From a virus, in UHGV virus genome UHGV-0036148: 55,727 nt of DNA; one strand, given 5' to 3'. Under the pieces are notes generated by a model. It did no database searches. It had not been told where the DNA came from and saw only the letters and a program-made list of their open reading frames with translations. Positions 1 through 26,008 of this stretch are shown here, piece after piece. The number at the start of each line of letters is the position of its first letter. The first letter of the stretch is position 1. A program made the translations under genes and the position numbers.

Positions 1-89
1 TCAATGTATCCGCATTCGTGATACCAGTACGCAATGCCAGCACGGACAAAAAAGCGGGTTTTATCCCGCTTGTGTTCATAGATACGCAT
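1..89 (-). CDS. hypothetical protein, N-terminal part of an ORF that runs off the window start and is in frame with the partial ORF at 55590..55727
   Basis: ATG at 89..87 preceded by GGGGTGA SD; frame stays open to position 1 and joins the open frame at the window end. Confidence 0.3.
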   Translation of the reverse strand, partial: MRIYEHKRDKTRFFVRAGIAYWYHECGYI

Positions 90-99
90 ATTCACCCCG

Positions 100-330
100 T
101 TATGCAGTTGTGTAGCTGTCCACCAGCTTTTCATCTTTCATTCTGGCAAGCTGGTCGATGTTCATCGTGTAGCCGCCATCGGAGAAAAGCAATTCAGCCG
201 CAGCGCGACGAAAAGCAATATCATCATGGTTACGTGTCCATGTAGCGATCACAACGCGTTTCCCGTTAGTGGCGAACATAGACAATTCGTTATCAACAAC
301 GTCGATAGCCTGCCAGATTTTTAATTCCAT
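100..330 (-). CDS. hypothetical protein (76 aa)
   Basis: six-frame ORF in tightly packed minus-strand operon; no recognisable motif. Confidence 0.4.
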   Translation of the reverse strand: MELKIWQAIDVVDNELSMFATNGKRVVIATWTRNHDDIAFRRAAAELLFSDGGYTMNIDQLARMKDEKLVDSYTTA

Positions 331-686
331 GATTTATCCCCGTAGATCTTGAATAGTTCACACGCTTCCTGATTTTCAAATATATTCATATGCAGGTCAC
401 GCAGGCGGCGCATTGTGCGGAAGCGCGGCCTGAACTCCTGGCTACGTTTAATGTATTTGCCGCCAATTGAATAAATATGCCCGTATGCGTACCATCTGTT
501 ACCTACCCATATATCATATTCTTTGCCTTCGTAATTAAATTTTATCGTTAGCTCGCCAACCTCAACTATTAACCCTTTGTCAATAATGTCATTAAGCATT
601 TCGTCCCATTCTTTGAGGAATGGTTGTTGATAAAAACCAAAAAGCGTATTTACAGCATGGCAAAGATAGTCAATGATTATTTGCAT
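321..686 (-). CDS. hypothetical protein (121 aa)
   Basis: ORF in operon context; no recognisable motif. Confidence 0.4.
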   Translation of the reverse strand: MQIIIDYLCHAVNTLFGFYQQPFLKEWDEMLNDIIDKGLIVEVGELTIKFNYEGKEYDIWVGNRWYAYGHIYSIGGKYIKRSQEFRPRFRTMRRLRDLHMNIFENQEACELFKIYGDKSWN

Positions 687-690
687 ATTA

Positions 691-903
691 TCACCACATC
701 ATATAATAAACGTTCTCGTCAGCTAACATGTCAGCTACATCCTGCGTCATGTGTCTGGCCTCAAGGAAAAAATCCTCACTATGCCATTCCCTTACAAGCA
801 TGCGCGCCCATTTACGGCGCTGGCGCTTATTGCGTCGCAGATCATCAAAAGCCTTTAATGCTTTGTCATATGCCCTTACCAGGCGTTTACGGTTACTTTT
901 CAT
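691..903 (-). CDS. small basic protein, tandem paralog A
   Basis: MKSNRKRLVRAYDKALKAFDDLRRNKRQRRKWARML closely parallels adjacent ORF 916..1104. Confidence 0.45.
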   Translation of the reverse strand: MKSNRKRLVRAYDKALKAFDDLRRNKRQRRKWARMLVREWHSEDFFLEARHMTQDVADMLADENVYYMMW

Positions 904-915
904 TTTTCACCCCAA

Positions 916-1104
916 TTAACCAAATAAATCCTCAGCAACAACATCATAAGCCTGATCAGCGGTTAATTTAGTATCACCAAAATTCCAATCCTTTGCTAAT
1001 TTCCTGGCTATGCGTCTTCTCTTGCGCTTATTGTTTTTCAGGTCGTCAAAATAACACAAACATTTATCATACGCCCTTACAAGGCGCTTAAGGTTACTTT
1101 TCAT
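916..1104 (-). CDS. small basic protein, tandem paralog B
   Basis: MKSNLKRLVRAYDKCLCYFDDLKNNKRKRRRIARKL; paralog of 691..903. Confidence 0.45.
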   Translation of the reverse strand: MKSNLKRLVRAYDKCLCYFDDLKNNKRKRRRIARKLAKDWNFGDTKLTADQAYDVVAEDLFG

Positions 1105-1107
1105 ATT

Positions 1108-1407
1108 TTAAATCCTATATTGCCAATAAATATCGCAGTGGATAGCAAAAACCTTAACAGGATCGTCACCAAACAAAGGATGTTGAATTGTCTTAATTGT
1201 GTACCCCATGTAAGGGAGAACAAGAATCCGCTTCTTATCTTCGTTTGCAGGGTATCCCCATTTAAGAATCAATCTTGTGTAGTCGCGCCCCTCAAGGCGT
1301 TTGCGCCAATAGTCATTATAAAGCCGGTATTCCTCTACCTTCTTCCCCGCCCGGATAGCGTGGAAGTATTCTCCTTTTAAATTCAAATGCAGGTGTTTAC
1401 TTGCCAT
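1108..1407 (-). CDS. putative ASCH-domain protein
   Basis: AGKKVEEYR fits the ASCH GxKxxExR signature; ATG at 1407 with AGGA SD; assignment from motif only. Confidence 0.35.
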   Translation of the reverse strand: MASKHLHLNLKGEYFHAIRAGKKVEEYRLYNDYWRKRLEGRDYTRLILKWGYPANEDKKRILVLPYMGYTIKTIQHPLFGDDPVKVFAIHCDIYWQYRI

Positions 1408-1669
1408 TGCTATGATCCTGTAAACAGTCGTTATAGCCTTCAATGTATCCGGTTAATCCGGTGTTACTCACTGACCATTCAGCTGAACGGCGCTTGATGG
1501 CCTCATCCATCGTAATTTCACCTTTACGGTGACATCCGGCGTCAATGTAACGGTTGACAACTGAAGACAACCTTCCGCGTAACTGTTGTGTTCCGGCGTA
1601 ATGGTGGGCCGTTTCCGTTAGTTCGTTAACTAGTTTTGCAAATAGATGTTCCTTTAATTTAGGCTTCAT
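1397..1669 (-). CDS. hypothetical protein (90 aa)
   Basis: ATG at 1669 overlaps upstream stop (translational coupling), GGGGTGA SD. Confidence 0.4.
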   Translation of the reverse strand: MKPKLKEHLFAKLVNELTETAHHYAGTQQLRGRLSSVVNRYIDAGCHRKGEITMDEAIKRRSAEWSVSNTGLTGYIEGYNDCLQDHSNGK

Positions 1670-1859
1670 TATCGTCACCCCGTTTGTATATTTTGATTGG
1701 CTTGATTGGGATTGCTGGCAATTCACCTTCATTCAATGCGCTTGCCATGCCCAATATTAAACGCGCTTCAGCACCAGTAACTTTCTTACACCACGCACCG
1801 CCCGTTTTATCTTCGAACAAGATAACGGCAAACTGATCGTTTATTTCCAGCTTATCCAT
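1659..1859 (-). CDS. hypothetical protein (66 aa)
   Basis: start overlaps Q stop codon (TAATG); operon context. Confidence 0.4.
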   Translation of the reverse strand: MDKLEINDQFAVILFEDKTGGAWCKKVTGAEARLILGMASALNEGELPAIPIKPIKIYKRGDDNEA

Positions 1860-2581
1860 TATTCACCCCGTGTCACTCGTTTGATTTCGTTGTCAGCCCG
1901 CGCCTCTTCTTTGAACAATTCGGCAATGGCGTCTTCATAGAAAGCCCGGTATTTCTTCCACCATGTTGATCGGCTTACCGGGAAAACAAGCTGATTAACC
2001 GCCTGCCGGACAAGATCTACAGGGAAACGCGAGTACCCGCGCCCGCCGCAGTGCTGGCACGTTTTGAACACTGGCATTTCCGCCGCTTCACTGGCTGCTT
2101 TATCCGGTACTTCGCCACGGCCCTTGCATTGTTTGCAATGATTGCGAACCGTCCCATGCCCCTTGCATTTTTTGCAAAGGTGTTTCTCACCGTATTCGTC
2201 AAACGTAAATTTATATCCGCCGCACTCCATACAAGTTTTTTCCGTCGCGGCGCTTTGGCAATAATCCCGAAACGCGAAAACGGCAACAAGAATAATGAGA
2301 TCATTGCGTTTGGCCTCGTCCAGTTCCATAACGTATTCATAATCTTTTGCCATAGCCCTTAAACGCTCTGTAAGCAAAACTACGGCCTTATGTTTTTCGG
2401 CTTGTGATAGTTCCATCTTTCCCAAAAAAGCGCTATAACCAAGCTCTACGCGCGATTGCGCCATACCTGCCGCAGTTAGTGCATCCGTAGTATTAAGAGC
2501 GTCCGGGGACGTGCCCCGGCTTTCATCTGATAAACGCGGTGATTTTGGGAAGTGGAATTTAAGAATAGATTCCAGATTCAT
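1859..2581 (-). CDS. Q: late antiterminator Q (lambda type) with extra CxxCxGxG zinc-finger repeats
   Basis: N-terminus MNLESILKFHFPKSPRLSDE... and C-terminus ...GYSRFPV...ADNEIKRVTR parallel lambda Q as I recall it; four CxxCxGxG motifs. Confidence 0.8.
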   Translation of the reverse strand: MNLESILKFHFPKSPRLSDESRGTSPDALNTTDALTAAGMAQSRVELGYSAFLGKMELSQAEKHKAVVLLTERLRAMAKDYEYVMELDEAKRNDLIILVAVFAFRDYCQSAATEKTCMECGGYKFTFDEYGEKHLCKKCKGHGTVRNHCKQCKGRGEVPDKAASEAAEMPVFKTCQHCGGRGYSRFPVDLVRQAVNQLVFPVSRSTWWKKYRAFYEDAIAELFKEEARADNEIKRVTRGE

Positions 2582-2763
2582 TATTTGCCCCCGTAACGAG
2601 CAATAAGGTGTTTACGATCAGAAATAGACTGAACTAACTTTCTCTCAAGCTCTTTCAATGCAAGCAATTCGCGCATATGAAAAGCCTGGATTTGTCGGAC
2701 TGTAGCTAAATAATGCTCATCGCGCTGAATATCTATTTGCAGATCTTTAATTTCGTTTTTCAT
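2581..2763 (-). CDS. hypothetical small protein (60 aa)
   Basis: ORF between rusA and Q; no recognisable motif. Confidence 0.35.
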   Translation of the reverse strand: MKNEIKDLQIDIQRDEHYLATVRQIQAFHMRELLALKELERKLVQSISDRKHLIARYGGK

Positions 2764-2766
2764 TTG

Positions 2767-3168
2767 TCACCCCCACATATTAGTTTCGTATTCACCAATA
2801 TCCGGTAACAGGTCGCCGCGTTCGCGAACTTTAATAAACAATCGCCCGCCTTTTACCTTCCGGCAGCGAACAATTTTTATTGCGTCGATTTGTCCGTCAT
2901 CATTCCAGAACTCTGCATAAGTAAGACTATCAAAAAGGCATTTGGGGATATTATCTAGATCTCTGGTTCGGTTATCCGGCGGCGCGGCATGAATGGTAAT
3001 TGCCAGTCGGCAAGATAGGTTGATGTTTAAATTTAATAGCTCGATGATGTCTCTTACTTGCTCACGGTATTCTTTTCCAACCTTGCTGATATAGTGAAAA
3101 CCGCGTGAATGCCGATAATATCGGTTATTAGATGGCGGGTAAGGTAGGCTAAATGTATATTCATTCAT
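2767..3168 (-). CDS. rusA: Holliday junction resolvase RusA
   Basis: LPYPPSNNRYYRH ... RDLDN ... KGGRL motifs match the RusA family. Confidence 0.85.
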   Translation of the reverse strand: MNEYTFSLPYPPSNNRYYRHSRGFHYISKVGKEYREQVRDIIELLNLNINLSCRLAITIHAAPPDNRTRDLDNIPKCLFDSLTYAEFWNDDGQIDAIKIVRCRKVKGGRLFIKVRERGDLLPDIGEYETNMWG

Positions 3169-3770
3169 GCTGCCTTTCTCCTTAAGGCGTCTAATTTAGC
3201 CTGATAGACTTTTATGATTTCCTTACATTCTTCTATCGTCCATTTGTGAGTTTCGTTGTTGTTCTCCAGCGCCACCACCCTGGCGAGGCCAATTTTTCGA
3301 ATCAGTGCCGGGCGATACCCTCCGATGTTGCCGTCTAGTGTCTGGTTGCAGTGCCTGCATTGCTTGTGACAATTATCATCGTTGAAACGAAGATGTCCTG
3401 CGGCGGCTACCGTCCTGTAATGGCCTGCATCCCACCCGCATTGCTCACCGTAGTAAGTCCCGCATGATATGCACGGCAATCGCGAGTCACGCTCGCGTAT
3501 ATAAGCGTTAAAAACGTTTTGTGCCTGTTTAATCCAGTAGCTACGCGGATTTAACTGCTTCCGCTTCCGGCTGCGCTCTTCCCGCTGGCTATCACGGCGT
3601 CTCTTCCGCTCCATAGCCTTCATAGCCTTCTCACGGTCGCGGCATAGCTGATCAAACTTCAGCTCTTCCAGACATTCATCGCTGCACCATGTTTGATTGT
3701 GATATTTAGGCTCAAAAAAAACGCCGCAGCATTTGCAACGGCGTCTTATGGGTTTTTTAGGGTTCTGCAT
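3165..3770 (-). CDS. ninG: NinG/Rap-like recombination protein
   Basis: RRRCKCCG, PRSYWIKQAQ, LPCISCGT, DAGHYRT, LRFN, HKQC, HRWTIEECK parallel lambda NinG; ATG at 3770 with GGGGTGG SD. Confidence 0.75.
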   Translation of the reverse strand: MQNPKKPIRRRCKCCGVFFEPKYHNQTWCSDECLEELKFDQLCRDREKAMKAMERKRRRDSQREERSRKRKQLNPRSYWIKQAQNVFNAYIRERDSRLPCISCGTYYGEQCGWDAGHYRTVAAAGHLRFNDDNCHKQCRHCNQTLDGNIGGYRPALIRKIGLARVVALENNNETHKWTIEECKEIIKVYQAKLDALRRKAA

Positions 3771-3784
3771 AAAAACCACCCCGA

Positions 3785-3961
3785 TTATTTTTGATTCTCT
3801 GTTTCGTTCAGCCTTTCGGCGTGTCCGGCCCTTAGCCAATGTTCTAAGCATTCGTTGCACTCGTTACAGCCTCCTTTCTTCGTGCTGCATACATTGCACA
3901 TTGCACGCATGACGCTCTCTCGTTCATAGTCGTCATGCCATTGGTAATTATCAAAAGGCAT
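3785..3961 (-). CDS. small Cys-rich protein (putative zinc-binding)
   Basis: CNVCSTKKGGCNECNEC motif; ATG at 3961 with AAGGAG SD. Confidence 0.4.
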   Translation of the reverse strand: MPFDNYQWHDDYERESVMRAMCNVCSTKKGGCNECNECLEHWLRAGHAERLNETENQK

Positions 3962-4120
3962 AATGCTCTCTCCTTTTAAGGTGATTTCTACGCATTTCAG
4001 CGCTGCCGGATTTTTAAAGAGCATTTTGCTTGCTTGAAGTATACAAAATGGATACGTGTAAACAAGACGAATAGCGCCATTATGTGATCCACATCACGCA
4101 ATGGCGCCATTTTGTAAATT

Positions 4121-4909
4121 TCAGTCCGGCAAAACGCGGTTGAGCGTAGTACGATTGATGGCCCTGTCGTTAGCCAGGAACACAGCACGGGCAAAGCCGC
4201 GCGGCGTTAGTGAGCGGATCATCTTAGTGCGTTTCGACTTTCCTCCCAACTTCGCGTGCTGCTTACTGTCTTCCCATTCGTCCGGCATTGGCACAGGCCG
4301 GAACAGCGGCTGTTTAAATCCGTTGCCGCACCAAATACAAGTTTTCTTCGTGTATGCGTCGCGGGCCGCTATGTATTCAGGGAAGGCAGGATGTTTGTCA
4401 TCTTCCGGCAGGTAGCCACCGTAAGCGCACGGGTTGAAAATAAAATCAGGTTTACGCCATAGCGTTGACAGTGCGCCCACCGGATTTTCCACCATCCACG
4501 GCACGTTATACATATTCGCCAGTTTTTCTACCAATTTTGCGTTATACGCCGCCTTTACCTGGAAAGCAGGATCTTTTTTTCGCTTATCAGCGAACCAGCG
4601 AGCACCAGACACAGCGAGATCGTCGCACGGCGGAAAGCCCAATATAATGTCAGGTGCTGGATAAGAAGATAATTCAGGCGAGAACATTGCCAGGAAATGG
4701 CTGTCAATCCACACGTTAACGTATTCAATATTCGGATGAATGATTTTAACGCCTTCATAATCGCCGTGATTTGCGCCGTCATAGTTGAAGCAATAGCACT
4801 TATATCCTGCTTCCGCCCAATCTTTAACGGCGTACCCGCTGCCGTCGTACAGCGACCACACAACCCAACTTCTAAGCCAATTATTTAACCAGTGTTTAGC
4901 CTTGCTCAT
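4121..4909 (-). CDS. putative DNA C5-cytosine methyltransferase-like protein
   Basis: LYDGSGY (motif I-like), GFPPCDD (PC motif IV-like), MVENPVG (ENV motif VI-like); short, no obvious target-recognition domain. Confidence 0.45.
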   Translation of the reverse strand: MSKAKHWLNNWLRSWVVWSLYDGSGYAVKDWAEAGYKCYCFNYDGANHGDYEGVKIIHPNIEYVNVWIDSHFLAMFSPELSSYPAPDIILGFPPCDDLAVSGARWFADKRKKDPAFQVKAAYNAKLVEKLANMYNVPWMVENPVGALSTLWRKPDFIFNPCAYGGYLPEDDKHPAFPEYIAARDAYTKKTCIWCGNGFKQPLFRPVPMPDEWEDSKQHAKLGGKSKRTKMIRSLTPRGFARAVFLANDRAINRTTLNRVLPD

Positions 4910-5451
4910 TTTCTGCCCTCAAACGTGAAATAGCGGCGCATGATGATAGTGATCACCGTTACCGCTGCCATTTTTGAGATGAATTGCATAGCTGATATTT
5001 CAGGCATAAACGCCATAAACGATAGCGTGGGGAAAATCAACGCATCGCCAATGGCTGACGCTATATTTGCAGGCCAGCGTTTCGAATCGAAATCACCAGG
5101 CAAAACCCGGTAAACACCGCCAGATATAAGCGCACCGGAAACAACCGCGACGAATGACGCGATTGCCACCATCCCTGCGTCATAATTTATCAGCACCGTG
5201 ATCGCGCCAGCGGCGGCGCATGTTGTAGCCGACCATTTCAGGCCGCCGTCATATAACAGAAAGTCGCGGATCATCATATTGACACACACTACGGCTACCG
5301 TGGTGATAGGGATCACCCACGGTCCGCAATGGTTAACAATAAGGTTGATGATCACGAAAACGGCGACATAAACGCAGGCCAATAACCTGTCAATTGCCAC
5401 CTTTTTCATTTGGGTCATACCTCTTATCGCGAATAGCTTCAGATCTGTCAA
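4906..5451 (-). CDS. multi-pass membrane protein
   Basis: several long hydrophobic segments (VYVAVFVIINLIV, ITTVAVVCV, IASFVAVVSGALISGGV, AVTVITIIM). Confidence 0.45.
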   Translation of the reverse strand: MTDLKLFAIRGMTQMKKVAIDRLLACVYVAVFVIINLIVNHCGPWVIPITTVAVVCVNMMIRDFLLYDGGLKWSATTCAAAGAITVLINYDAGMVAIASFVAVVSGALISGGVYRVLPGDFDSKRWPANIASAIGDALIFPTLSFMAFMPEISAMQFISKMAAVTVITIIMRRYFTFEGRK

Positions 5452-5887
5452 AACTCAAATCAAGCCGAGTTGAAATACAACCGCATTGAGGGTTAAGCAT
5501 TGAAGGGGGCAACCCCTTACAGCTTGTTATTGCTCCGTCATTTATTATTCCATCATTAATATTGGCGGCAGTGAACTGATTTTTCTTTAGCTCTTCATCG
5601 CGATCATTTAATATTTGCTCCGCTTTTAGTGCGCTGTAGCTGATTAAGTCAACCAAAGTATCAGTAGGGTCAGAACCATTAGCCAAAATGGCCTCTAAAC
5701 GCGCTTCCTTGAGGCAAATCATCAGATCCCATACATCAAGTGGTGTTAAGTTTGCGCCCTTCTTAGCGTTGTATATAGTGGCTATTTTTGGCGCTGATTT
5801 TTCCTCTTTTCTGTCGTAGCCGTTTTGTTTACCTCTTTGCTCTATTGTTTCCGCTGCAAGTCGTAATAAATCTGCTGCATTAGTCAT
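5390..5887 (-). CDS. hypothetical protein
   Basis: ORF between the two methyltransferase genes; start taken at internal ATG after Dam stop. Confidence 0.35.
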   Translation of the reverse strand: MTNAADLLRLAAETIEQRGKQNGYDRKEEKSAPKIATIYNAKKGANLTPLDVWDLMICLKEARLEAILANGSDPTDTLVDLISYSALKAEQILNDRDEELKKNQFTAANINDGIINDGAITSCKGLPPSMLNPQCGCISTRLDLSFDRSEAIRDKRYDPNEKGGN

Positions 5888-6419
5888 TATCTGCACCTCT
5901 TGCATATAGCTCTTTACGTGTTATCTGCGTGAAAATACATTCATGTCTGCACCGTGGATGCCAGATCAAAAACAAGCTCCCTTTGTTGTTTCCGCTCACT
6001 GGCTTACCAGTCGCAGCATTTATAAAAGCCAGCCGCCCGCGCGTGATTAATCGGCATTCGCTTGCCGTCTCAACGCCGTTCATAAACCAGCTAACAGAAA
6101 TGTCAGCGGGCAATAACATTACGCAACCGATGTGGTTTCGGCTGTGTTCAAGCGCCGCTTTATCAACGAATGGCCCCGGGTTCGAATATGGTGGATTCAT
6201 CCAGACATACTCACCAGGCATTGCCACCGCTCCCCACGGATAATGCAACGTGTCCATTTCTTCGGTTATATATCGCGGTATTAATGCGTTTGCTTCGTTT
6301 GCTGCCACATCTGCGACAAACTCGAACTCGCGATCCATTCCTCTAAAAACTGGTTTAGGTGTCTGCCACAGGTCTTTAATTTCCTTCGGCGTACTGCTGC
6401 CTCCAAAATCATTTTTCAT
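5880..6419 (-). CDS. phage DNA N6-adenine methyltransferase (Dam-like)
   Basis: LWQTP ... MNPPYS (NPPY catalytic motif) typical of phage Dam N6-MTases; ATG at 6419 with GGGTGG SD. Confidence 0.7.
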   Translation of the reverse strand: MKNDFGGSSTPKEIKDLWQTPKPVFRGMDREFEFVADVAANEANALIPRYITEEMDTLHYPWGAVAMPGEYVWMNPPYSNPGPFVDKAALEHSRNHIGCVMLLPADISVSWFMNGVETASECRLITRGRLAFINAATGKPVSGNNKGSLFLIWHPRCRHECIFTQITRKELYARGADND

Positions 6420-6431
6420 TATGACCACCCA

Positions 6432-6683
6432 CTAGAAATAGTCCTGTTCCGTTCCCCAACGGTTGTTCAAATATCCCACCAACCAGATAAAACGCTCAAT
6501 ACTGATTAGTGGGGCGACCTTGCGATAATGCTTTTCTAATATCAGCCGCGTAGCTTTATCGCTGTAGCCGTTTCTTTCTACCTCCGCTTTGCAGGCAGAA
6601 AGCGCAGCGCGGGCGGCAGCTTTTACGGCATTAAATTGCAGTTCTGACATATTGAACAAAGCCATAGGATCACCATTCATCAC
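6432..6683 (-). CDS. hypothetical protein (83 aa)
   Basis: ORF in operon context. Confidence 0.35.
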   Translation of the reverse strand: MMNGDPMALFNMSELQFNAVKAAARAALSACKAEVERNGYSDKATRLILEKHYRKVAPLISIERFIWLVGYLNNRWGTEQDYF

Positions 6684-6906
6684 CCCAATCAGGCGCTACA
6701 GTCCAGCAAAAACCAATGAATGCGCTAACAGCCAATAAAGCGCGGGCTGCAAAAAGAATATTCCCAATGTCGTTAAATTCAGGCAGCGACCACGTAATAA
6801 ACATAGCCCCCAGCATGATAACACCGATAGCAGTCAGGGCCGCCAGGAAAACAAAAAGCGTAGCCAAAAGCCACGCCCCCAACCAGTTAAAAAAGCTCTT
6901 AACCAT
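6670..6906 (-). CDS. small membrane protein (78 aa)
   Basis: two hydrophobic helices (WLGAWLLATLFVFLAALTAIGVIMLGAMFI ; ALLAVSAFIGFCW). Confidence 0.4.
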   Translation of the reverse strand: MVKSFFNWLGAWLLATLFVFLAALTAIGVIMLGAMFITWSLPEFNDIGNILFAARALLAVSAFIGFCWTVAPDWGDEW

Positions 6907-6907
6907 T

Positions 6908-7111
6908 TTAAACCTCGTCTATTACACCGCCTTGCACGCGCTCATTAATGTCCCATGTGTGAGATTTGCACACTTCTTGATAATAGTGATCCGGCCTGCT
7001 GCCGAAATACCATTTACCTTCCATATAAAAATAAACGCCCGAAAATATTCCGGGCGCTGCCTTTGTTGCTGATTCTGGAATCTTCCATTCTTTATATTGT
7101 TTAAACTTCAT
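6908..7111 (-). CDS. hypothetical protein (67 aa)
   Basis: ORF in operon context. Confidence 0.35.
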   Translation of the reverse strand: MKFKQYKEWKIPESATKAAPGIFSGVYFYMEGKWYFGSRPDHYYQEVCKSHTWDINERVQGGVIDEV

Positions 7112-7292
7112 ACATTAACACCGCCTTTTTAAGTGCGCTTAATTCAAAGTGCATAAGACGAAAATGCTGTACACCACCAACAATACTAACCTGATAAATA
7201 TCACCGACACAGTTATAGTAATAACAACCAAATTGACCGATTCCGGCTAATTTAGCGTTATCCGGTATCATGTATTCGCCAACCTTTTTCAT
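7101..7292 (-). CDS. hypothetical protein (63 aa)
   Basis: ATG at 7292 with GAGGTGA SD. Confidence 0.35.
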   Translation of the reverse strand: MKKVGEYMIPDNAKLAGIGQFGCYYYNCVGDIYQVSIVGGVQHFRLMHFELSALKKAVLMYEV

Positions 7293-7295
7293 ATA

Positions 7296-7388
7296 TCACC
7301 TCATATGGTATTCAATAAACCACCTGATAAACAGGCATAAGGCAATAAAACCCCAGCAACAGCACATATAAAACAATGTGTCGTCCAT
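7296..7388 (-). CDS. mini membrane peptide (30 aa)
   Basis: MDDTLFYMCCCWGFIALCLFIRWFIEYHMR; GAGG SD; stop overlaps SD of next gene. Confidence 0.35.
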   Translation of the reverse strand: MDDTLFYMCCCWGFIALCLFIRWFIEYHMR

Positions 7389-7390
7389 AA

Positions 7391-7609
7391 TTAAGCCTCA
7401 ATAACACCGTAATCAAACGTGCCTAAATACCGTTCGATGCTTACAACCTCAATACCATCAATGCACCGTTTCCACACAGACACCCGGCTTTCATTTTCCC
7501 GGAAGTGCATATTAGAAAGCACTTCATCGGCTGGATAGCCTTTCCCGGCGACGTAGGCATCGTGACCTACTCCACCCTCAACACAATAAAGCATTAATTC
7601 GCGGGCCAT
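7391..7609 (-). CDS. hypothetical protein (72 aa)
   Basis: first ORF after the 100-bp intergenic gap that carries a CRP-consensus site. Confidence 0.35.
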   Translation of the reverse strand: MARELMLYCVEGGVGHDAYVAGKGYPADEVLSNMHFRENESRVSVWKRCIDGIEVVSIERYLGTFDYGVIEA

Positions 7610-7686
7610 CTTGTCTTCCTCCGTGCCGTAAACCTTTTAATTTCAGTTCACAAAACGGATTCGCAATCACAACACAAAATGTATAT

Positions 7687-7708
7687 TTATGTGATCGCAA
7701 TCACAATG
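7687..7708. promoter_or_regulatory. CRP-consensus palindrome TGTGA-N6-TCACA
   Basis: ttaTGTGAtcgcaaTCACAatg, perfect half-sites with 6-bp spacer, in a 100-bp intergenic gap. Confidence 0.45.
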
Positions 7709-8329
7709 TTAATGAAGTACGCGTTTTTCAGGTTCAGGCACTAGCTGTGCGTCTTTCCGCGCGTCATTAAGCACAGCTATAGCTGCCTGTACACCTAAAT
7801 CATTTGCGCGCATATTATTGCCAACCATTTCGCCGTAAAATAATGGCATGATCGCCTTTACTTCTTCCTCTGTGTGACCTTCATCAATACACTTCTGTAA
7901 CGCTTTAGCCTCGAATACTTTTTTCATTACGCCGCGCACAGAATACAGCGCAACGCTACCCATATGATTTTCATCTAACGGGAAAATAACAGCACTTCCG
8001 AACGCCAGCGGGTCAATCTCTTCCGGTACTGGTACTCGCCCAAATTCTTCTTCCATTCGTTTTACGAAAGCGAGGCAGAAGACATAACGAGCTACGGCAG
8101 TTTTTTCTTCAGCGTTTAAAGACACATAATCGCGGATCGACGCGTCCATCACAATATCAACAATCTGTAACGCCAGATTCAAATCAGCGTCATACGCACC
8201 AGCTTCCATATCTTTTAATACTTCGTGATAATCTTTAATTTCTACTTCATGAAAACTTGCATCTTCAGTGTAGCGAGTGATTAACATGCCTTCGCTGCCG
8301 AGTGAATAAGCCGTTTTGATGTCTTTCAT
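7709..8329 (-). CDS. hypothetical protein (206 aa)
   Basis: long ORF in early-left operon; no recognisable motif. Confidence 0.45.
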   Translation of the reverse strand: MKDIKTAYSLGSEGMLITRYTEDASFHEVEIKDYHEVLKDMEAGAYDADLNLALQIVDIVMDASIRDYVSLNAEEKTAVARYVFCLAFVKRMEEEFGRVPVPEEIDPLAFGSAVIFPLDENHMGSVALYSVRGVMKKVFEAKALQKCIDEGHTEEEVKAIMPLFYGEMVGNNMRANDLGVQAAIAVLNDARKDAQLVPEPEKRVLH

Positions 8330-8342
8330 GATATTTATCCTT

Positions 8343-8675
8343 TTATAGTGGGTGATGCCATTTCATTTCAGTTTCTGGATTGAACGGGTTTCCTTCGCTT
8401 AAAAGGAATAAGTCACGCGCCCGTTTTAGCTCTTCCTGGTTTATTTCGATTTCATCAATCTGACCGAACGATCCAGGCATCATCCGTTTTAAATCAGATA
8501 GCGGGCGCATAAGGCCGCAGCCACGTAACAACATGTCTAACGCGAATTGCCGCCGCCCAGCCGCATCATTAAAGCGACGTGCCCACGGTACACACACGAT
8601 CCGGCGCTCGAACTCAATAAATAGCGATAGCTTGTTAGTTTCTGCATCATATGCTTTATGTAATTTAATTTTCAT
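8343..8675 (-). CDS. hypothetical protein (110 aa)
   Basis: ORF in operon context. Confidence 0.4.
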   Translation of the reverse strand: MKIKLHKAYDAETNKLSLFIEFERRIVCVPWARRFNDAAGRRQFALDMLLRGCGLMRPLSDLKRMMPGSFGQIDEIEINQEELKRARDLFLLSEGNPFNPETEMKWHHPL

Positions 8676-8856
8676 CTAACACCTCGATATATTGTTCAAG
8701 ATGCCATCTGCCGACTTCCTTCAGGTCTTCATCGTATATAACGACTTCCCCGCCCTGCATGATCATGAAGGCAGCGGCTGTAAATTCACGCCCCCACCAC
8801 GCCTTTAATCGCTCACCGCCTTTCAGGTCTTTGACCTTTACTTCTTTTATAGCCAT
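8665..8856 (-). CDS. hypothetical protein (63 aa)
   Basis: ORF in operon context. Confidence 0.35.
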   Translation of the reverse strand: MAIKEVKVKDLKGGERLKAWWGREFTAAAFMIMQGGEVVIYDEDLKEVGRWHLEQYIEVLDEN

Positions 8857-9119
8857 ACGCCGAACATCCCATTCAGTCCGGCGAACAATTTCCGCCAGTG
8901 GTTTTCAGCATAAGCCCGGAACGGCTTAACGCGAACATTGCGGGCCTTCAGTTCAATCTTGTCGAAGAAACGCGGCTCTATAATTGTTCCGTCCAGATAT
9001 TTAACCAGGATCGGACGCTCAAGATCGTCATGTGTCTTGTTCAGCACAACCAGACCAGGGTCTTTACGGTATTCCGGGAGCACGACCAGATCACCCGTTT
9101 TGATATTCATGAATGGCAT
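8847..9119 (-). CDS. hypothetical protein (90 aa)
   Basis: ATG at 9119 overlapping stop of upstream mini-ORF. Confidence 0.4.
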   Translation of the reverse strand: MPFMNIKTGDLVVLPEYRKDPGLVVLNKTHDDLERPILVKYLDGTIIEPRFFDKIELKARNVRVKPFRAYAENHWRKLFAGLNGMFGVWL

Positions 9120-9235
9120 CACATCACCCCGCCGATATAGCTAATAATTGCCGCAGCCGCGCCAGCCATTACCACCATGAAGACGAAAGCGACCACACAG
9201 AAAACGGCCTTGACAGTATTTTTGTCTACTCGCAT
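9119..9235 (-). CDS. mini membrane peptide (38 aa)
   Basis: MRVDKNTVKAVFCVVAFVFMVVMAGAAAAIISYIGGVM; GAGGT SD; TGATG overlap with next gene. Confidence 0.35.
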   Translation of the reverse strand: MRVDKNTVKAVFCVVAFVFMVVMAGAAAAIISYIGGVM

Positions 9236-9242
9236 ATAAACC

Positions 9243-9350
9243 TCACATGTCAGTAATCAGCTTAACAATCGCCACAGTGATATAGAGTGACGCACTAAGG
9301 TAAACAGCCGCCACAGCGACGGCGGCGGATAACATTGCAATCTTTTTCAT
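9243..9350 (-). CDS. mini membrane peptide (35 aa)
   Basis: MKKIAMLSAAVAVAAVYLSASLYITVAIVKLITDM; ATGA overlap with upstream stop. Confidence 0.35.
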   Translation of the reverse strand: MKKIAMLSAAVAVAAVYLSASLYITVAIVKLITDM

Positions 9351-9571
9351 TTGCCACCCTCCGCAATGAACTTATCAAGCCATTTGTTATTAGCCAGCCG
9401 TTCGGCATCTTCGCCAAATGATTTACGTTCGCTTAATTCCTGTCGAGTTGGAAAAGGCCACTTATCGATCCATCCTGCCGACGTTTCAAACTCGTACAGC
9501 CCGCCACCGAAAGTAATAAGTTCATCAGCGCCGTCAGGAATTTCATTGTCAACTTCTTTATCTTCGATCAT
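9347..9571 (-). CDS. hypothetical acidic protein (74 aa)
   Basis: ORF in operon context. Confidence 0.4.
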   Translation of the reverse strand: MIEDKEVDNEIPDGADELITFGGGLYEFETSAGWIDKWPFPTRQELSERKSFGEDAERLANNKWLDKFIAEGGK

Positions 9572-9585
9572 GATTTAATACCTCA

Positions 9586-9864
9586 TTAATCGTTAATAAC
9601 CTGGCCCATACGCCCGCGATATTTGCGCATACGTGGATCGACATATTCAGGCCAGTGCATATCCGGTTTTCTTTGCAGTGGGTAAAAACTTGCCTGCCAG
9701 TTGTCGAACCATATTTGCTTTGCGTACAGGTCACTAAATCTTTTTGCCATCCGTTCCGCTGCCGTTCCGCATAAAAAAAGCCCATGATCGATATGATCAC
9801 GGGCTTCTTTGAGAACTTGCTCTTTTGTTCGCGGTGGCGGTGGCGTTTTTAAATAATCAACCAT
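9586..9864 (-). CDS. hypothetical protein (92 aa)
   Basis: ORF downstream of ssb. Confidence 0.4.
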   Translation of the reverse strand: MVDYLKTPPPPRTKEQVLKEARDHIDHGLFLCGTAAERMAKRFSDLYAKQIWFDNWQASFYPLQRKPDMHWPEYVDPRMRKYRGRMGQVIND

Positions 9865-9879
9865 CGCTAACCTATTGAT

Positions 9880-10284
9880 TTAAAACGGGATGTCGTCATC
9901 GAAGTCAGGAGGAACATTATTCCCGTTATTATTCTGCTGCTGCGGCGGCGCTTTCTGCTGCTGGCCTTGCTGGTTAACAGCCATGAACTCAAACTCATTG
10001 ACCGCCACTTCTACCGCAGTTCCCTTCGTGCCGTCGTTCCGGTCATATTGCCGAACATCCAGGCGACCGCTTACCACTATTTTTCCACCCTTACGGATAT
10101 GTGGCGCTAATTTTTCCGCACGCTCGCCAAATACAAGACAAGTGATCCACATTACCCGCTTATTATCACCGTAGCCATTCGTTACAGCTAACGGGAAGCT
10201 ACCAATCGCTTTACCATTTTGCGTGTAGCGAACCTCCATATCATTCCCGATATTACCGCCCAGTGTGATTGAATTTAAGCTCAT
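9880..10284 (-). CDS. ssb: single-stranded DNA-binding protein
   Basis: OB-fold-like N-terminal region, Gln/Pro-rich linker, acidic C-terminal tip PPDFDDDIPF. Confidence 0.85.
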   Translation of the reverse strand: MSLNSITLGGNIGNDMEVRYTQNGKAIGSFPLAVTNGYGDNKRVMWITCLVFGERAEKLAPHIRKGGKIVVSGRLDVRQYDRNDGTKGTAVEVAVNEFEFMAVNQQGQQQKAPPQQQNNNGNNVPPDFDDDIPF

Positions 10285-10937
10285 TAACCGATCTCCCCGT
10301 TAAGCTCTTTTAAGCGAATGTCATAAACGTCTTTCGCTTTCTGTTGCTGTTCTGAATCTTTAGGCAGTAGTTTCCAGCACTTCCCGAAGATCTCGCGTAA
10401 CTTGTTAGCGTCCTGCGCTTTCGCTGCCGCATCACAGAAACGCGCTAACACCTCATCAGGATTTGGCGGCGCTTTCTGCTGCTGTGGTTTCTGATTAGGT
10501 TGTTGTTTTGGTGGGTTTTTCTGCTGGCGAGGCTGCTGCCCTGTCTGTTTAGCGTATGCGTCGCTATCTAAATCTTTCGCATCGTCAATACAGAACAAGC
10601 CATTCAAGCAATATTTGCGAGCATAAGAAGATGTCGCGCCAGTTAATTGACCAGCCGACATTCCTTTTTGTTCCTTCTCCTCGCGAGCGAAAGCAGTAGC
10701 CGTTATTTCGTCTTCTCCATCGCTCAATACCGCCGTAGCCTTAATGTAATAACGATCACCAATTAACACAACTTCATCATTAAGCGTTAATGTAATGCCT
10801 TCCAGTAAAGGCTTGACAGCCTCCAAAATATCCTCAGCCGACCTATAATTGTAACCCCCGTATGAGTTGCGCTGAGATTTTGGCGCCTTTAATTGTTGCT
10901 GTATTAGCCACAATTTTTTATATAAATCTTTCTTCAC
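10284..10937 (-). CDS. erf: Erf-family single-strand annealing protein
   Basis: N-terminal region resembles the Erf family (recalled); position beside ssb; GTG start at 10937. Confidence 0.6.
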   Translation of the reverse strand: MKKDLYKKLWLIQQQLKAPKSQRNSYGGYNYRSAEDILEAVKPLLEGITLTLNDEVVLIGDRYYIKATAVLSDGEDEITATAFAREEKEQKGMSAGQLTGATSSYARKYCLNGLFCIDDAKDLDSDAYAKQTGQQPRQQKNPPKQQPNQKPQQQKAPPNPDEVLARFCDAAAKAQDANKLREIFGKCWKLLPKDSEQQQKAKDVYDIRLKELNGEIG

Positions 10938-11379
10938 ATCGTTTCCCCTTTTTTAAAGGAAGAAGTACAGCGGCCTCATGAGTCCAGCCGCGACGCAATC
11001 TTGTATGTATAGTGTGCTCACATATACCGTATTTTTCAGAAAAATAATGTACCGTGTTTGTTTCCCCCTTCACTGTTAACATCATGGTTCTGCATGTATT
11101 GCGCATGTTTTCAGCGTGCGTAACCCATCGGCAATTATCAGGTGAATACCCCTTGTCGTTGTCAATCCTGTCTATTTCTAACCCTTCACGATAACCGTTA
11201 TTTAAAGCCCACTCGATAAACTTTGACGAATCATTCAACCATTCGTCACATATAGTTATATTTTTATCCTTATAGTGTTTATTTCGTGGATTCTTATCGC
11301 TTTCCCTGCATCTCGTTTTCATTCCCTTAAAAACGTCATAAAGTTTTGTATGCGTCATTCCATGTTTTGAATAACCCAT
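10918..11379 (-). CDS. HNH endonuclease
   Basis: IDRIDNDKGYSPDNCRWVTHAENMRN HNH-type motif; AAGGAGA SD. Confidence 0.6.
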   Translation of the reverse strand: MGYSKHGMTHTKLYDVFKGMKTRCRESDKNPRNKHYKDKNITICDEWLNDSSKFIEWALNNGYREGLEIDRIDNDKGYSPDNCRWVTHAENMRNTCRTMMLTVKGETNTVHYFSEKYGICEHTIHTRLRRGWTHEAAVLLPLKKGKRCEERFI

Positions 11380-11528
11380 TAACTAATCTCCTTCGCTGTT
11401 AACACTACATACAAGGCTTTATTCGCGGCGCTCCACATATCGGCATCATGAAGCACTTCCGCTACCGCCAGTTTGAATTGAAGCGCCTGAATAACCATAA
11501 TGTCACCTCAGAATGTTTACATTTTGTA

Positions 11529-11819
11529 TTAATGGTAGCGGACTTTATCCAGGGGTTTCTCCCCTAAATGGCGTGGTTGCGTTGCGTGGTAGTAGCTGCC
11601 GCTTTCATTTTCCGTATACCATTTTACTGATCCTTTGCGACGTTCTTTAATGCTATTTGGTTTGCATCTTTCCTCGTTTGCAAATCGAATAGCTTTATCC
11701 ACATTGTCTGTTTTATTAATTGCAGGTGATGATTTTCTTTCGTTTTCTCTTTTTATCCTTCTGCGTTCCCTGGCGTTCATTTTGCTATCACATTTTCCAT
11801 ACATAATTGTAACGCTCAT
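11529..11819 (-). CDS. putative N-like antiterminator (arginine-rich motif protein)
   Basis: NARERRRIKRENERK arginine-rich motif near N-terminus; first gene of the leftward operon. Confidence 0.3.
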   Translation of the reverse strand: MSVTIMYGKCDSKMNARERRRIKRENERKSSPAINKTDNVDKAIRFANEERCKPNSIKERRKGSVKWYTENESGSYYHATQPRHLGEKPLDKVRYH

Positions 11820-12160
11820 AATCTGATCTCCGTATATCCTTGATGAAACTTAATAAAAAATCATCTTCGTTAATTGCCGCACTTCCAGCGGCTGACCAGA
11901 TTTTTAATGAGCGGCTTAACATCTTTCAACTAATCCCGCAATCATCGCCGTTTCCGGTGTGACCTTGCTCACTCCAAGCAAGCTGACTCGTCGCCTTGCG
12001 TGCGGTTTCGTGGGGGATGTAACGCTTTAAACACCCCATGCGCCTTGTTATCAGTGCCGCTTTCGGTCCCCCATCGGGGAGTTACTCCACGGTTGACAAG
12101 GTGTTAAGCCTGATTTTTAAAGTGCCAGGAAGCTGCTTTTGTTACCTACGCCCTTCCTTT

Positions 12161-12196
12161 GATTCGCAATATACGCCCCGTAAAACACCGAGTCAA
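12161..12196 (-). promoter_or_regulatory. candidate leftward early promoter (PL-like)
   Basis: minus strand TTGACT - 17 bp - TATATT between cI terminator and N-like gene. Confidence 0.35.
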
Positions 12197-12289
12197 TCCA
12201 TTTTGTATACTTTTTTAAAATATTTTATATGCTATTGATATCTAAACAATAAATAGCGTTTTCTGTTTACGTTTTGGTGTTTTTTTGGG

Positions 12290-12320
12290 CGAAGAAAAGC
12301 CGCCATCCGGCGGCTAATGT
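12290..12320 (-). terminator. rho-independent terminator after repressor gene
   Basis: minus strand GCCGCCGGATGGCGGC hairpin followed by TTTTCTT. Confidence 0.5.
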
Positions 12321-12968
12321 TTATGGCAGGTTTACGATCTTCGCATCAACCACCACGCCCAATATTTTTGACTCTGGATTCATAGGGATCGGCGGATACA
12401 ACGGATTCAGTGAACGCAAAAGTTTTCGGCCTCCATCAATAATCAACTGTTTAAACGTAGGTATCTGCCCTTCCTCCAGTTGTGCTATAACAAGTTTTCC
12501 GTCAATAGCTGGCGCGTGCGGGTCAACGAGTATCATAGTCCCCGCCGGGATGCTTAACCCCTGCGGTGCGTTCATTGATTCACCTTTAGCAACCAGCCAA
12601 TAACTATCATCCGAACAAATAACGCTAGTAGCAACGTGTGGCAATGTTGATCGGTGTGTGCCTTCCATATTGTTTGCTACATCCTTCCAGTCAACAACCG
12701 GATAACTGCCTAAATCACGCGGTGGCGCTCCCGGCAACGTGTTAGAAACAGAATCATCAATGACCATTCCGTCATGAGTAACAGTGAATTGCCGACGCCC
12801 AAGCGCCCGCATGATACGCGCAATATCTTCAAGATTCGGCTCACGGCGACCGTTCAGCCAGTGAGAAAGGCCGCCTTTGGTTATCCCCATAAGATCAGCC
12901 AATGAATCCTGGCTCATGCCCTGCGCCCGCATGAGTTGTTTTGCTAAGTCATACCATTTTGTTTTCAT
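12321..12968 (-). CDS. cI: CI-like repressor (HTH_XRE + S24 LexA-like peptidase)
   Basis: N-terminal HTH (QDSLADLMGITKGGLSHWLNG), C-terminal S24 domain with AKGESM serine motif and K later. Confidence 0.8.
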   Translation of the reverse strand: MKTKWYDLAKQLMRAQGMSQDSLADLMGITKGGLSHWLNGRREPNLEDIARIMRALGRRQFTVTHDGMVIDDSVSNTLPGAPPRDLGSYPVVDWKDVANNMEGTHRSTLPHVATSVICSDDSYWLVAKGESMNAPQGLSIPAGTMILVDPHAPAIDGKLVIAQLEEGQIPTFKQLIIDGGRKLLRSLNPLYPPIPMNPESKILGVVVDAKIVNLP

Positions 12969-13273
12969 GTCGCTACCCTATAACCTAAAAAATTTTGATG
13001 CAAGTCACAAAACGTGTTTTTCAAGTCTTGACCCGTTAGCGCCATTCTGTAAACTTGCTGACAAGGTAAAGCCATACTTGCAATGATGCAAGGAAAAAGA
13101 TAAGGGAAAGCACAAAAAGGCCGACGCCTTAAGCTCTTTAAAAATCCGGTGTCGCTGCGAAGCGAAAAACAAATATCACGCAACGGCGGGATCTGTTGAG
13201 CGGTCAGTCACTGCTATCTAATGCTAATGGGATGCCCGCCCGCGCGTTCATTTTAACCATAGGAGAAAATACA

Positions 13274-13528
13274 ATGAGCATGAACATGATTAGCGAAGTA
13301 TGGAAAGTAAAACTTAACAGCCCGATTCAAAAACTGGTCTTAATGGCTCTGGCTGAAAAGGCAGATAACCGCCGTCACGTCATGGTATCACGACAAGAAA
13401 TTGCAAAAATGTGTGAACTTCCTGTTCATACGGTACATGATGCCTTCGCTGCGTTAATGCATAAAGGGTTTGTTTGTCGTCTTGATGCGTTCAGTGATGT
13501 CTATGTAGTGATGTTACCGGAGGAATGA
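13274..13528 (+). CDS. HTH DNA-binding protein, Cro-like candidate
   Basis: first gene of rightward operon divergent from repressor; AGGAG SD before ATG 13274; HTH-like segment. Confidence 0.45.
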   Translation: MSMNMISEVWKVKLNSPIQKLVLMALAEKADNRRHVMVSRQEIAKMCELPVHTVHDAFAALMHKGFVCRLDAFSDVYVVMLPEE

Positions 13529-13531
13529 TCT

Positions 13532-14578
13532 ATGAAGTGGTTTAAGCATGATAGCGATGCGAACCGCGATGAAAAACTTCAAAACGTTTTATTAGATTAT
13601 GGCCTGGAAGGGTACGGGCTTTATTGGTATTGCCTCGAACTAATAACTTATGACGTAGATCAGCACAATCTGACTTTTGACCTACGACATGACGCGAGAA
13701 TCATTGCGCGAAACGTCGGATCGACTGAAAAACGTATAGAAGAAATGATGAAATACTTCATCGAAATTGGTTTGTTTGAATGTTCTCAAGGCCACATAAC
13801 TTGTTTAAAGTTATTGAAAAGGCTGGACCAATCAATGACTTCTAAAAGCGCTTACAGGGCCGCCATAAACACAGCGAAGGAGCAATTAAAATTAGAAAAG
13901 TTAATCAATCCAACACAAAAAGGTCATGATAGGGTCATGACCGGGTCAGGAAAGGGTCATGAATTAGAATTAGAAGAAGAAAGAGAAAAAGATATATACA
14001 CTTCGTGTATTGTCGAAAATGAACAAAAAATGGTCAATCAGGATGGCGTAAACGAAGCGGCGTTGCGTTGCCTGGCCTTCTACAACGACAAGGCAGGATG
14101 CAAATGTCGTGATGCGAAGCCATTCATCGAACTACTGACAGAAACAAAAACACGTAAAGCGTATACGGAGGATGAGATCACATTAGTGATTGAGTGGGCT
14201 TTAACGCAATGGCGTAGCCGTGGTGGAACACCTAAGCCTATCAATATTTGCCGGGTAACTAAATTTGATGGGTATCTGACTGATGCTGAACAATGGCGCA
14301 AACTGTCAGCCACCGCAAACGCTGCCGACGTGGTGGAAGCATTTAACAGCACGTTTGACAGCCTGTTACCACCTGTCGAACTGGATCGGGATCTTGAGCG
14401 CAAGATCTATGCGTTCACTGACTACCTGAAAGACAAAAGCATTAACGGCTTTGTCGCCTACTTCGAAACGTTCAAAAACACGGCTTCAGATTTTTACTTC
14501 GGCGATGGCTTCACAGCGACACTTGATTTTCTGCTTAAACCAAAAACGCTACGCGATACACGCGCAGGCGCTCTTTGA
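13532..14578 (+). CDS. replication initiator / replisome organizer
   Basis: N-terminus MKWFKHDSDANRDEKLQNVLLDYGLEGYGLYWYCLE resembles the phage replisome-organizer N-terminal domain; contains iterons. Confidence 0.6.
   Translation: MKWFKHDSDANRDEKLQNVLLDYGLEGYGLYWYCLELITYDVDQHNLTFDLRHDARIIARNVGSTEKRIEEMMKYFIEIGLFECSQGHITCLKLLKRLDQSMTSKSAYRAAINTAKEQLKLEKLINPTQKGHDRVMTGSGKGHELELEEEREKDIYTSCIVENEQKMVNQDGVNEAALRCLAFYNDKAGCKCRDAKPFIELLTETKTRKAYTEDEITLVIEWALTQWRSRGGTPKPINICRVTKFDGYLTDAEQWRKLSATANAADVVEAFNSTFDSLLPPVELDRDLERKIYAFTDYLKDKSINGFVAYFETFKNTASDFYFGDGFTATLDFLLKPKTLRDTRAGAL
13915..14010. other. candidate origin of replication (iterons + AT-rich tract) inside initiator gene
   Basis: four 11-bp-spaced copies of GGTCATGA/GGTCAGGA followed by AT-rich attagaattagaagaagaaagagaaaaagatatata. 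Confidence 0.5.
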
Positions 14579-14712
14579 CCACCCACGATCCGCAAAAACC
14601 CAAAATAACCCGCAAAACAAGCTCGCCAGCGAGATAAATCGCATGTGGTGCTACACTTACTTACCTTTTTGCGATTAGCTCGTTATAGAGCGTTACAGAG
14701 AGGATTTCAAAA

Positions 14713-14814
14713 ATGGACGGTAAACACGTTTTCGCCCTGGCTTTTGCCATCGCCGCTGCAATAGCTGTTAACGTCGCCTTGTTCGGCGGTTTGTTCCTTC
14801 TCGTCAATCCATAA
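14713..14814 (+). CDS. mini membrane peptide (33 aa)
   Basis: MDGKHVFALAFAIAAAIAVNVALFGGLFLLVNP; GAGG SD. Confidence 0.3.
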   Translation: MDGKHVFALAFAIAAAIAVNVALFGGLFLLVNP

Positions 14815-14946
14815 CCTACCTACCAGTCTGTAAATCAAAAATTAGCCACCCGATAGCGCCTCTAGCGCAATAAGACACTGCAACCTGTGCAAACGGGTTA
14901 CGCGGTGGGATTTTTGCGTTGTAGAGCGTTTTACGGAGAAATTACA

Positions 14947-15684
14947 ATGTCTGAGTTGATGTGTTTTAATTTTGATGACAATAAAATCACTGCTGTAATT
15001 TATGACGGTAAACCTGCTTTTGTTGCGGTTGATGTGGCCCGTGCGCTGGGGTACAACGACGAGCATCAGGCCATTAAAAAACATTGTAAGTCATTGATTA
15101 AACTTGATTCCGTTAAAACAACGGAATTAGGTTTTGGGTTCAGACCAAAAGGCATAATTATAATTCGAGAGGCAGATATATACCGTCTTGTTATGAGATC
15201 AAAATTAGAATCAGCCGAGCGCTTCCAGGATTGGGTGTGCGAGGAGGTTCTTCCGGCTTTGCGTGAAAATGGGTGTTACGGTTGCAAACCTGCTTTGCCT
15301 GACTTCTCTAACCCTGCGGAAGCGGCGCGGGCGTGGGCTAATGAATACGAGCAAAAATTGTTAGTTAAGCAAGAAAATGAACGTCTTGCGCTTGAAAATA
15401 AAGTGCTGGCTCCGAAAGCGGCTGTATGTGACGCGATAGTCAAAAACGATATGCACCGAACGGCTTCAGAGGTAGCTAAACCGCTGGGAATGTCAGCCGT
15501 AAAATTAAACAGAAAACTTTCGGCGGTTGGTGTTTATGATCTTCGCTGTCGCCGCCGTGTATTCAGTCAGTGGTTTATTGATGAGGGCTACGGTGAAATG
15601 AGGGTAACTCACGATGGATATGAGCAGGCTGTATTCACTGCTAAAGGACAAGTATGGATCACTGAGCTTTTAACTTGCAACTAA
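14947..15684 (+). CDS. antirepressor (Bro-N + KilA-C/Ant domains)
   Basis: FNFDDNKITAVIYDGKPAFVAVDVARALGY Bro-N signature; C-terminal Ant-like region; GGAG SD. Confidence 0.75.
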   Translation: MSELMCFNFDDNKITAVIYDGKPAFVAVDVARALGYNDEHQAIKKHCKSLIKLDSVKTTELGFGFRPKGIIIIREADIYRLVMRSKLESAERFQDWVCEEVLPALRENGCYGCKPALPDFSNPAEAARAWANEYEQKLLVKQENERLALENKVLAPKAAVCDAIVKNDMHRTASEVAKPLGMSAVKLNRKLSAVGVYDLRCRRRVFSQWFIDEGYGEMRVTHDGYEQAVFTAKGQVWITELLTCN

Positions 15685-15718
15685 GTATACAATTTGTTAT
15701 TCGTGAGGAAATGACACT

Positions 15719-16837: not shown

Positions 16838-16855
16838 ACCGGAGGCAATAACATA

Positions 16856-18271: not shown

Positions 18272-18347
18272 TCAATATGAGCAAACGGCTTACCAGAAAG
18301 TTTACCGCTTTCTGGTGGCTGTTATCGCGTTTAAAGCGAGGCTGAAA

Positions 18348-18857: not shown

Positions 18858-18871
18858 ACGGGGTTGGAACT

Positions 18872-19078
18872 ATGAGGCGTGTAATTTTTTATTCAGTTGA
18901 AACGTTTGTTGACGATACGCGCGTTTATTATCCGTGGGAAGTATACGACGCAATGGTGTATACGCCGCCACTAATGCGGAAATATAAACACGTAAAATTT
19001 AACCGGGTTTTCGTGCCGATGCGCGATGCATTACGGGCGCTGCGTGGGGAATTAAGAAACACAATGCGGATTGTGTAA
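18872..19078 (+). CDS. hypothetical protein (68 aa)
   Basis: ORF in operon context. Confidence 0.3.
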   Translation: MRRVIFYSVETFVDDTRVYYPWEVYDAMVYTPPLMRKYKHVKFNRVFVPMRDALRALRGELRNTMRIV

Positions 19079-19088
19079 GGGGGGGGGG
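19079..19088 (+). repeat. G10 homopolymer tract forming the RBS of the downstream gene
   Basis: ten consecutive G between stop TAA (19076-78) and ATG 19092. Confidence 0.9.
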
Positions 19089-19091
19089 ATT

Positions 19092-19913: not shown

Positions 19914-19914
19914 T

Positions 19915-25577: not shown

Positions 25578-25620
25578 CTCGATGACTCCATTTTGTTAAT
25601 TAACGGAATAATTCTACCAT

Positions 25621-26003: not shown

Positions 26004-26008
26004 AAGAA

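Follow-up and report, generated by a model that had tools for sequence, protein, structure and literature searches.

The window, by which we mean the whole 55,727-nucleotide stretch of DNA analysed here, is best explained as the unit-length circular genome of a temperate phage, probably with a headful life cycle, cut open at an arbitrary place (probability about 0.93 for this reading as a whole). It holds one exact unit (55,727 bp) of a temperate mEpimmI (mEp021-like) Escherichia coli siphovirus genome, which would have been assembled as a closed circle, relieved of any terminal overlap and written out from an arbitrary point inside a gene for a 77-residue protein. mEp021 is the archetype of the recently described mEpimmI group, temperate, Nus-dependent, non-lambda-like siphoviruses that are common both as E. 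coli prophages and in human gut metagenomes (PMC11893012). Similarity, synteny and an abgT-type integrase place the window in this group, and its length fits the 53.0–54.7 kb of group genomes.

The gene at the joint is real, and it is divided between the two ends of the window on the minus strand. ACGGGGTGAAT lies 5′ of its ATG (positions 89–87), and GGGGTGA (92..98, read 98–92, minus strand) is Shine–Dalgarno-like by resemblance to the consensus. From the ATG, the frame stays open to position 1, a distance of 29 codons and two bases. When the ends are joined, bases 2, 1 and 55727 form codon 30 (GAA, Glu30), and 47 more codons follow before a TGA at 55585–55583, giving a product of 77 aa (MRIYEHKRDKTRFFVRAGIAYWYHECGYIEAVAYDLDFEQEKEWFDFRIYRKRKPTRDERHAIRDFLISIERWETEE). 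The 5′ part of the gene (1..89, minus strand) comprises codons 1–29 plus bases one and two of codon 30, and its N-terminal 30 residues align to mEp010_57 and to positions 1–30 of phrog_30442. The 3′ part (55583..55727, minus strand), delimited by the sequence and by alignments to the same protein and profile, comprises the third base of codon 30, codons 31–77 and the TGA stop. The initial annotation had described the minus-strand start at ATG 89 with its GGGGTGA and the frame open to position 1, all of which can be read directly in the sequence, and a joined length of 77 aa, which we reproduced by joining the window ends. It had also let the frame end at 55590, a coordinate that is off by about 5–7 bases, the stop actually lying at 55583–55585.

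At its 3′ end, the split gene is linked to the next gene by a typical coupled-gene junction, in which its TGA overlaps the ATG (55586–55584) of the downstream neighbour as ATGA. This neighbour (55308..55586, minus strand) encodes 92 aa (phrog_33175), and the identical protein is found on the Logan contig ERR7738353_7548. The upstream neighbour (100..330, minus strand; 76 aa, phrog_38280) ends in a TAA stop at 102–100, and the same gene order is found in locus L007. All three belong to a tightly packed series of small genes on the minus strand (321..686 and 100..330, then the split gene, then 55308..55586, 55078..55305 and more beyond), each with its own PHROG, to which no function is attached. 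In ERR7738353_7548, whose sequence is identical, this run sits between NinG/RusA/antiterminator genes and holin–lysozyme genes. Annotators will miss or truncate the split 77-aa gene, a phrog_30442 homologue, if they do not handle the record as a circle.

An open frame across the joint says little in a gene-dense phage genome. When pieces of this genome were joined at random 20,000 times, 35% of the chimeras had an ORF of 77 aa or more that crossed the joint and extended for 20 or more codons to either side; at truly contiguous positions, the share was 51%. ORF continuity alone is therefore weak evidence, not above chance, and we rejected it as sufficient evidence that the ends are adjacent. 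The same chance rate is what speaks for a prophage flanked by host DNA, or a linear genome truly ending at the window ends, where the spanning ORF would be a coincidence. We consider this reading to have almost no chance of being correct, as the joined protein covers the phrog_30442 profile completely (residues 1–77 on positions 1–77 of 77, E 2.1e-51) and aligns without gaps over 77/77 residues to mEp010_57 of Escherichia phage mEp010, at 92% identity. This homology lifts the spanning ORF far above chance.

Full-length E. coli homologues of the joined protein occur in clusters of several hundred member sequences, and the protein carries no Pfam domain. In a search of 1.8 billion representative proteins, matches were limited to the cluster of the protein itself, one frameshifted variant and a TPR-repeat protein, the last being judged spurious; in part of the searches, the homologue P0003 stood in for the joined protein. 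The family is confined to the mEpimmI phage group. An AlphaFold2 model built from a shallow alignment is poor (mean pLDDT 60.5, pTM 0.45), and nothing suggests that the protein itself has any bearing on genome topology. In the database homologues P0005, P0006 and P0007, the N-terminus (MNTSGIKPAF...) is unrelated and matches what this DNA encodes in a different reading frame, indicating that the split gene is frameshifted or decaying in some prophages.

The two window ends are contiguous in other DNA. A 940-bp joint probe, built end-to-start across 55727|1, aligns as one piece to mEp013 (93.3%) and mEp010 (91.7%), in the middle of the genome in both cases. Our search of 5,426 complete E. coli genomes found the joint contiguous in 13 prophages. 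Any match to the joint region was limited to 35 of these genomes, which indicates that the region is accessory rather than core host DNA and is a further argument against host flanks. In the metagenome contig OQVO01000153.1, an exact 34-mer across the joint is present, and the alignment over the joint is 94% identical; there are no gaps in the cross-joint alignments to this contig and to mEp013. Neither the viral-contig collection nor the collection of species-representative genomes contains an exact match to the 34-mer, and a 40-mer from window positions 20–60 has no exact match in the viral-contig collection.

The most telling evidence comes from an independent assembly. A look-up of the exact 92-aa product of gene 55308..55586 led to the 26,519-bp Logan contig ERR7738353_7548, of which the 20,279 bp fetched are 100.000% identical to the window, with 0 mismatches and 0 gaps. 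The identical stretch consists of window 45308..55727 followed directly by 1..9859. The end-to-start closure is thus exact to the base. With both ends made of phage DNA, and with these ends adjacent in many relatives as well as in the identical independent contig, there is little room for a prophage with host flanks or for a linear genome ending here. We found no direct repeat of 5–400 bases common to the two window ends, so any assembly overlap must already have been trimmed. A claim of the initial annotation can now be divided: it had taken an ORF across the boundary to imply a circular or circularly permuted genome, and this conclusion holds through homology and the independent contig, whereas the argument from the ORF alone fails because 35% of random joins do as well.

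A second contig of the same run, ERR7738353_70941, is 100% identical to window 19073..21387. It is only 2,315 bp long, covers the ninB–integrase region and ends inside the integrase gene. This ending suggests a branch of the assembly graph at that point, caused by co-occurring integrase variants or by a mixture of integrated and free phage.

Comparison of whole genomes extends the adjacency to a full circular map. BLAST of the window against complete mEp010 yields two collinear blocks on the opposite strand, which account for 82% of the window and 85% of mEp010. One block pairs window 1..22129 with mEp010 21304..1, the other window 22131..55722 with mEp010 53790..21310. The ends of mEp010 are consequently adjacent in the window, at 22129|22131, and the ends of the window are adjacent in mEp010, at 21304|21310, a permutation that also refutes a linear genome with true ends here. 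A third record, MagusPhagus (PP925836.1), has its last base at window 12320 and its first base at 12321, where the gene for the CI-like repressor (12321..12968, minus strand) has its stop codon, and it runs contiguously across the joint of the window. Three group records are therefore opened at three unrelated points, with the ends of each internal in the others, as expected for arbitrary linearisations of one circular map. The window represents one complete genome unit and a circular permutation of related phage maps. The proposal of a whole phage genome that was opened arbitrarily is thereby upheld by the contiguous joint, the permutation relative to mEp010 and the identical independent contig.

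A unit-length slice of several genome copies in tandem, as in a double lysogen or a replicative concatemer, would show the same adjacency as a closed circular contig. Such arrays of relatives do exist. In JADZIY010000003.1 (GCA_022130325.1), a related prophage is present twice (28201–48449 and 82563–102811), at a spacing of 54,362 bp; host genes adjoin the first copy, and an integrase–attP–tail-fibre joint precedes the second. The record thus shows two prophages in tandem in one lysogen, and attP has been re-formed where they meet. A slice of such an array would nevertheless have to be exactly one unit to the base, which is very unlikely unless the record is one unit, and we regard this origin of the window as highly improbable. 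Its consequences would in any case be the same, as the ends would be adjacent and the genome complete.

No tRNA genes and no Rfam matches were found in the window. In the plasmid collection, no record matches more than the tail-fibre gene, and a reading of the window as a plasmid record was dropped on this ground. Searches of the phage, plasmid, viral-contig and species-representative genome collections gave no record identical to the window.

The site at which relatives of this phage meet the host chromosome lies in the interior of the window. A tyrosine integrase of the abgT-targeting type is encoded at 20744..21958 (minus strand), with Arm-DNA-bind_3, Phage_int_M and Phage_integrase domains. 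Its start is uncertain: candidate codons, among them the likely start, lie at 21943–21967, and the longest ORF reaches 22096. An exact-protein look-up of the integrase with a 399-aa start gave no record. E. coli prophage DNA that is 88.8–94.5% identical to window 20700–22105 ends beside a truncated AbgT transporter gene, and in the GN05505 prophage the remainder of abgT is found at the opposite end, next to the tail-fibre side. Towards the integrase, prophage homology extends to 22105; on the tail-fibre side, it starts at 22086 in a second abgT-integrated prophage (L011). These limits give 22086..22105 as the attP common core, and a three-way alignment shows that CTATCCATTTATCTTTT at 22089–22105 is common to attL and attR of abgT-integrated prophages. 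A type II integrase with an abgT target has been described for mEp010, mEp013 and mEp044 (PMC11893012).

The attP core is bordered by repeats that are plausible arm-type integrase sites. On the integrase side, a 22-nt direct repeat, TTTGGTCACCATTTGGTACACA, occupies 21947..21968 (plus strand), and a second copy, 95% identical, occupies 22178..22199 (plus strand) on the tail-fibre side; each is a candidate arm-type site. Shorter ACGAT-rich repeats also flank the core.

Taken together, attP sits in mid-window, with the integrase gene on one side and the tail-fibre gene (22257..25577) on the other, and neither window end carries host DNA. The initial annotation had placed the integrase and attP in mid-window, as the integrase domains and the core mapped from prophage attL and attR bear out, and had excluded an integrated prophage with host flanks. 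This exclusion stands, given that the window ends are adjacent phage DNA and that the host junctions of integrated relatives fall at window 22086–22105, not at the window ends. The attP site is also where the GenBank records of the mEp phages are opened. PCR on CsCl-purified mEp021 virion DNA amplifies across the att region (PMC11893012), and the opening of these records at attP is therefore a convention and does not mark physical ends.

In a metagenomic relative, a 51,975-bp contig (ENA ERZ27294503 k141_239414), the locus at 6225–6499 takes the place of window 20611–22101, and no integrase is called. The 219-aa gene after ninB is there followed at a short distance by the tail-fibre gene. Similarity to the window breaks off at 20610 and begins again at 22102, which is the right edge of the attP core. 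The integrase may have been lost in this phage, or the contig may be an assembly chimera.

We then considered how the genome would be packaged. The packaging module lies on the minus strand and consists of TerS (49153..49659), TerL (47672..49156) and the portal (46223..47614). TerS is clearly homologous to Sf6 gp1 (Pfam PF20901, E 1.9e-36; PDB 3hef and 4dyc, E 6e-28; phrog_1482), and its Pfam domains are Sf6_terminase and HTH_7 only. TerL carries Terminase_6C as its only Pfam domain, belongs to phrog_38 (E 6e-100) and is 98% identical to an mEp044 protein. It scores below every curated NCBIfam cut-off and has no match among PDB sequences, the Sf6 and P22 terminases included. By tblastn, it shows only distant similarity (24–33%) to T1-like terminases and to those of certain mycobacteriophages, phages that package by the headful mechanism or have circularly permuted DNA.

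For this genome, a circular molecule, permuted virion DNA and a cos-ended genome assembled as a circle would all present the same sequence, and it is the Sf6-type TerS that tips the balance towards headful packaging. Sf6 packages its DNA by a headful (pac) mechanism (PMC4856287), and the homology of TerS suggests a headful, circularly permuted step here as well. The virion DNA is probably terminally redundant and circularly permuted, so that assemblies close into a circle.

A genome with defined ends, either cohesive or formed by short exact terminal repeats, could also have closed, the circle then arising only from ligated or concatemeric reads while the virion DNA itself is not permuted. Circular assembly closure does not discriminate between these end types, TerL is not assignable to a packaging class, and packaging is not covered in the paper describing the group (PMC11893012). 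We nevertheless consider defined ends unlikely: TerS resembles that of a pac/headful phage, a Pfam search of the window found no lambda-type Nu1 or GpA terminase domains, and none of the three unrelated points at which group records are opened lies beside the terminase genes.

Under the headful reading of a circular, temperate genome, the injected DNA would circularise, and the integrase would recombine the attP core (about 22089–22105) with the 3′ part of host abgT to form the prophage. After induction, the Sf6-type TerS/TerL terminase would package concatemers by the headful. This would produce terminally redundant, circularly permuted virion DNA and would explain why the reads assemble as a circle that lacks fixed ends.

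A broader proposal would have mEpimmI phages in general package permuted DNA by the headful, which would make them possible generalised transducers in E. coli, and would have the phage of ERR7738353 present mainly as free or replicative circles; we hold the chances for and against it to be roughly balanced. If headful packaging is true, widespread gut coliphages could be generalised transducers among commensal and pathogenic E. coli, and the packaging mode of this common gut phage group is the one further point of some interest. Otherwise, the value of the result is mainly one of bookkeeping. The record is a complete genome, not a fragment or a flanked prophage, and this raises no new biological question. 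A circular assembly cut open in mid-gene is a routine by-product of phage genome assembly and storage. The gene family, like the phage group, had been catalogued before, and the genome adds a further member to a described group. Natural reference points for its map are attP or the terminase genes, not the window ends.

Among known phages, mEp010, mEp013 and mEp044 share with the window the gene order of the whole genome, the abgT-type integrase, the CI-like repressor region, the Sf6-like TerS, TerL, the portal, a Mu-F-like head module and the 77-aa gene (mEp010_57). The repressor region (window 11384–13268) is 96.2% identical to that of mEp010. Unlike the window, these three records are opened beside attP and written on the opposite strand, and the window is only about 80–96% identical to them per segment. 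Relative to mEp010, several small segments have been replaced. The homing endonuclease mEp010_11, located between the helicase gene and the gene preceding it, is absent from the window (window 16822–16828 versus mEp010 5332–5860), a presence/absence polymorphism that is typical of mobile endonucleases.

Larger differences are found in the tail genes. The ORF at the tape-measure position (window 35692–38841, minus strand) encodes 1,049 aa, versus 782 aa in mEp010 (mEp010_99), and about 2.7 kb of it, especially 36014–38771, has no match in mEp010. In other relatives, the protein encoded here has 1,051 aa and contains a TMP_3 domain. The side tail-fibre gene (minus strand) encodes a 1,106-aa protein for which an exact-protein look-up gave no record, and its distal part (22676–25272) is not shared with mEp010. 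This part is 83–86% identical to fibres of the unrelated coliphages Ayreon and vB_EcoS-640R1 and to plasmid-borne S74-peptidase fibre genes, which indicates that the receptor-binding module has been exchanged.

MagusPhagus belongs to the same group, has the same orientation as the window and includes its joint, and it differs in its opening point, 12320|12321, which makes it a third permutation of the same circular map. No match of its record to the integrase region of the window was reported. The relationship to Sf6 and P22 is of another kind. While TerS is homologous to Sf6 gp1, no relation by sequence can be detected between TerL and the terminases of solved structure, Sf6 and P22 included, and the phage as a whole, a siphovirus whose J, L and tape-measure tail genes are lambda-like, is not a P22-like podovirus.
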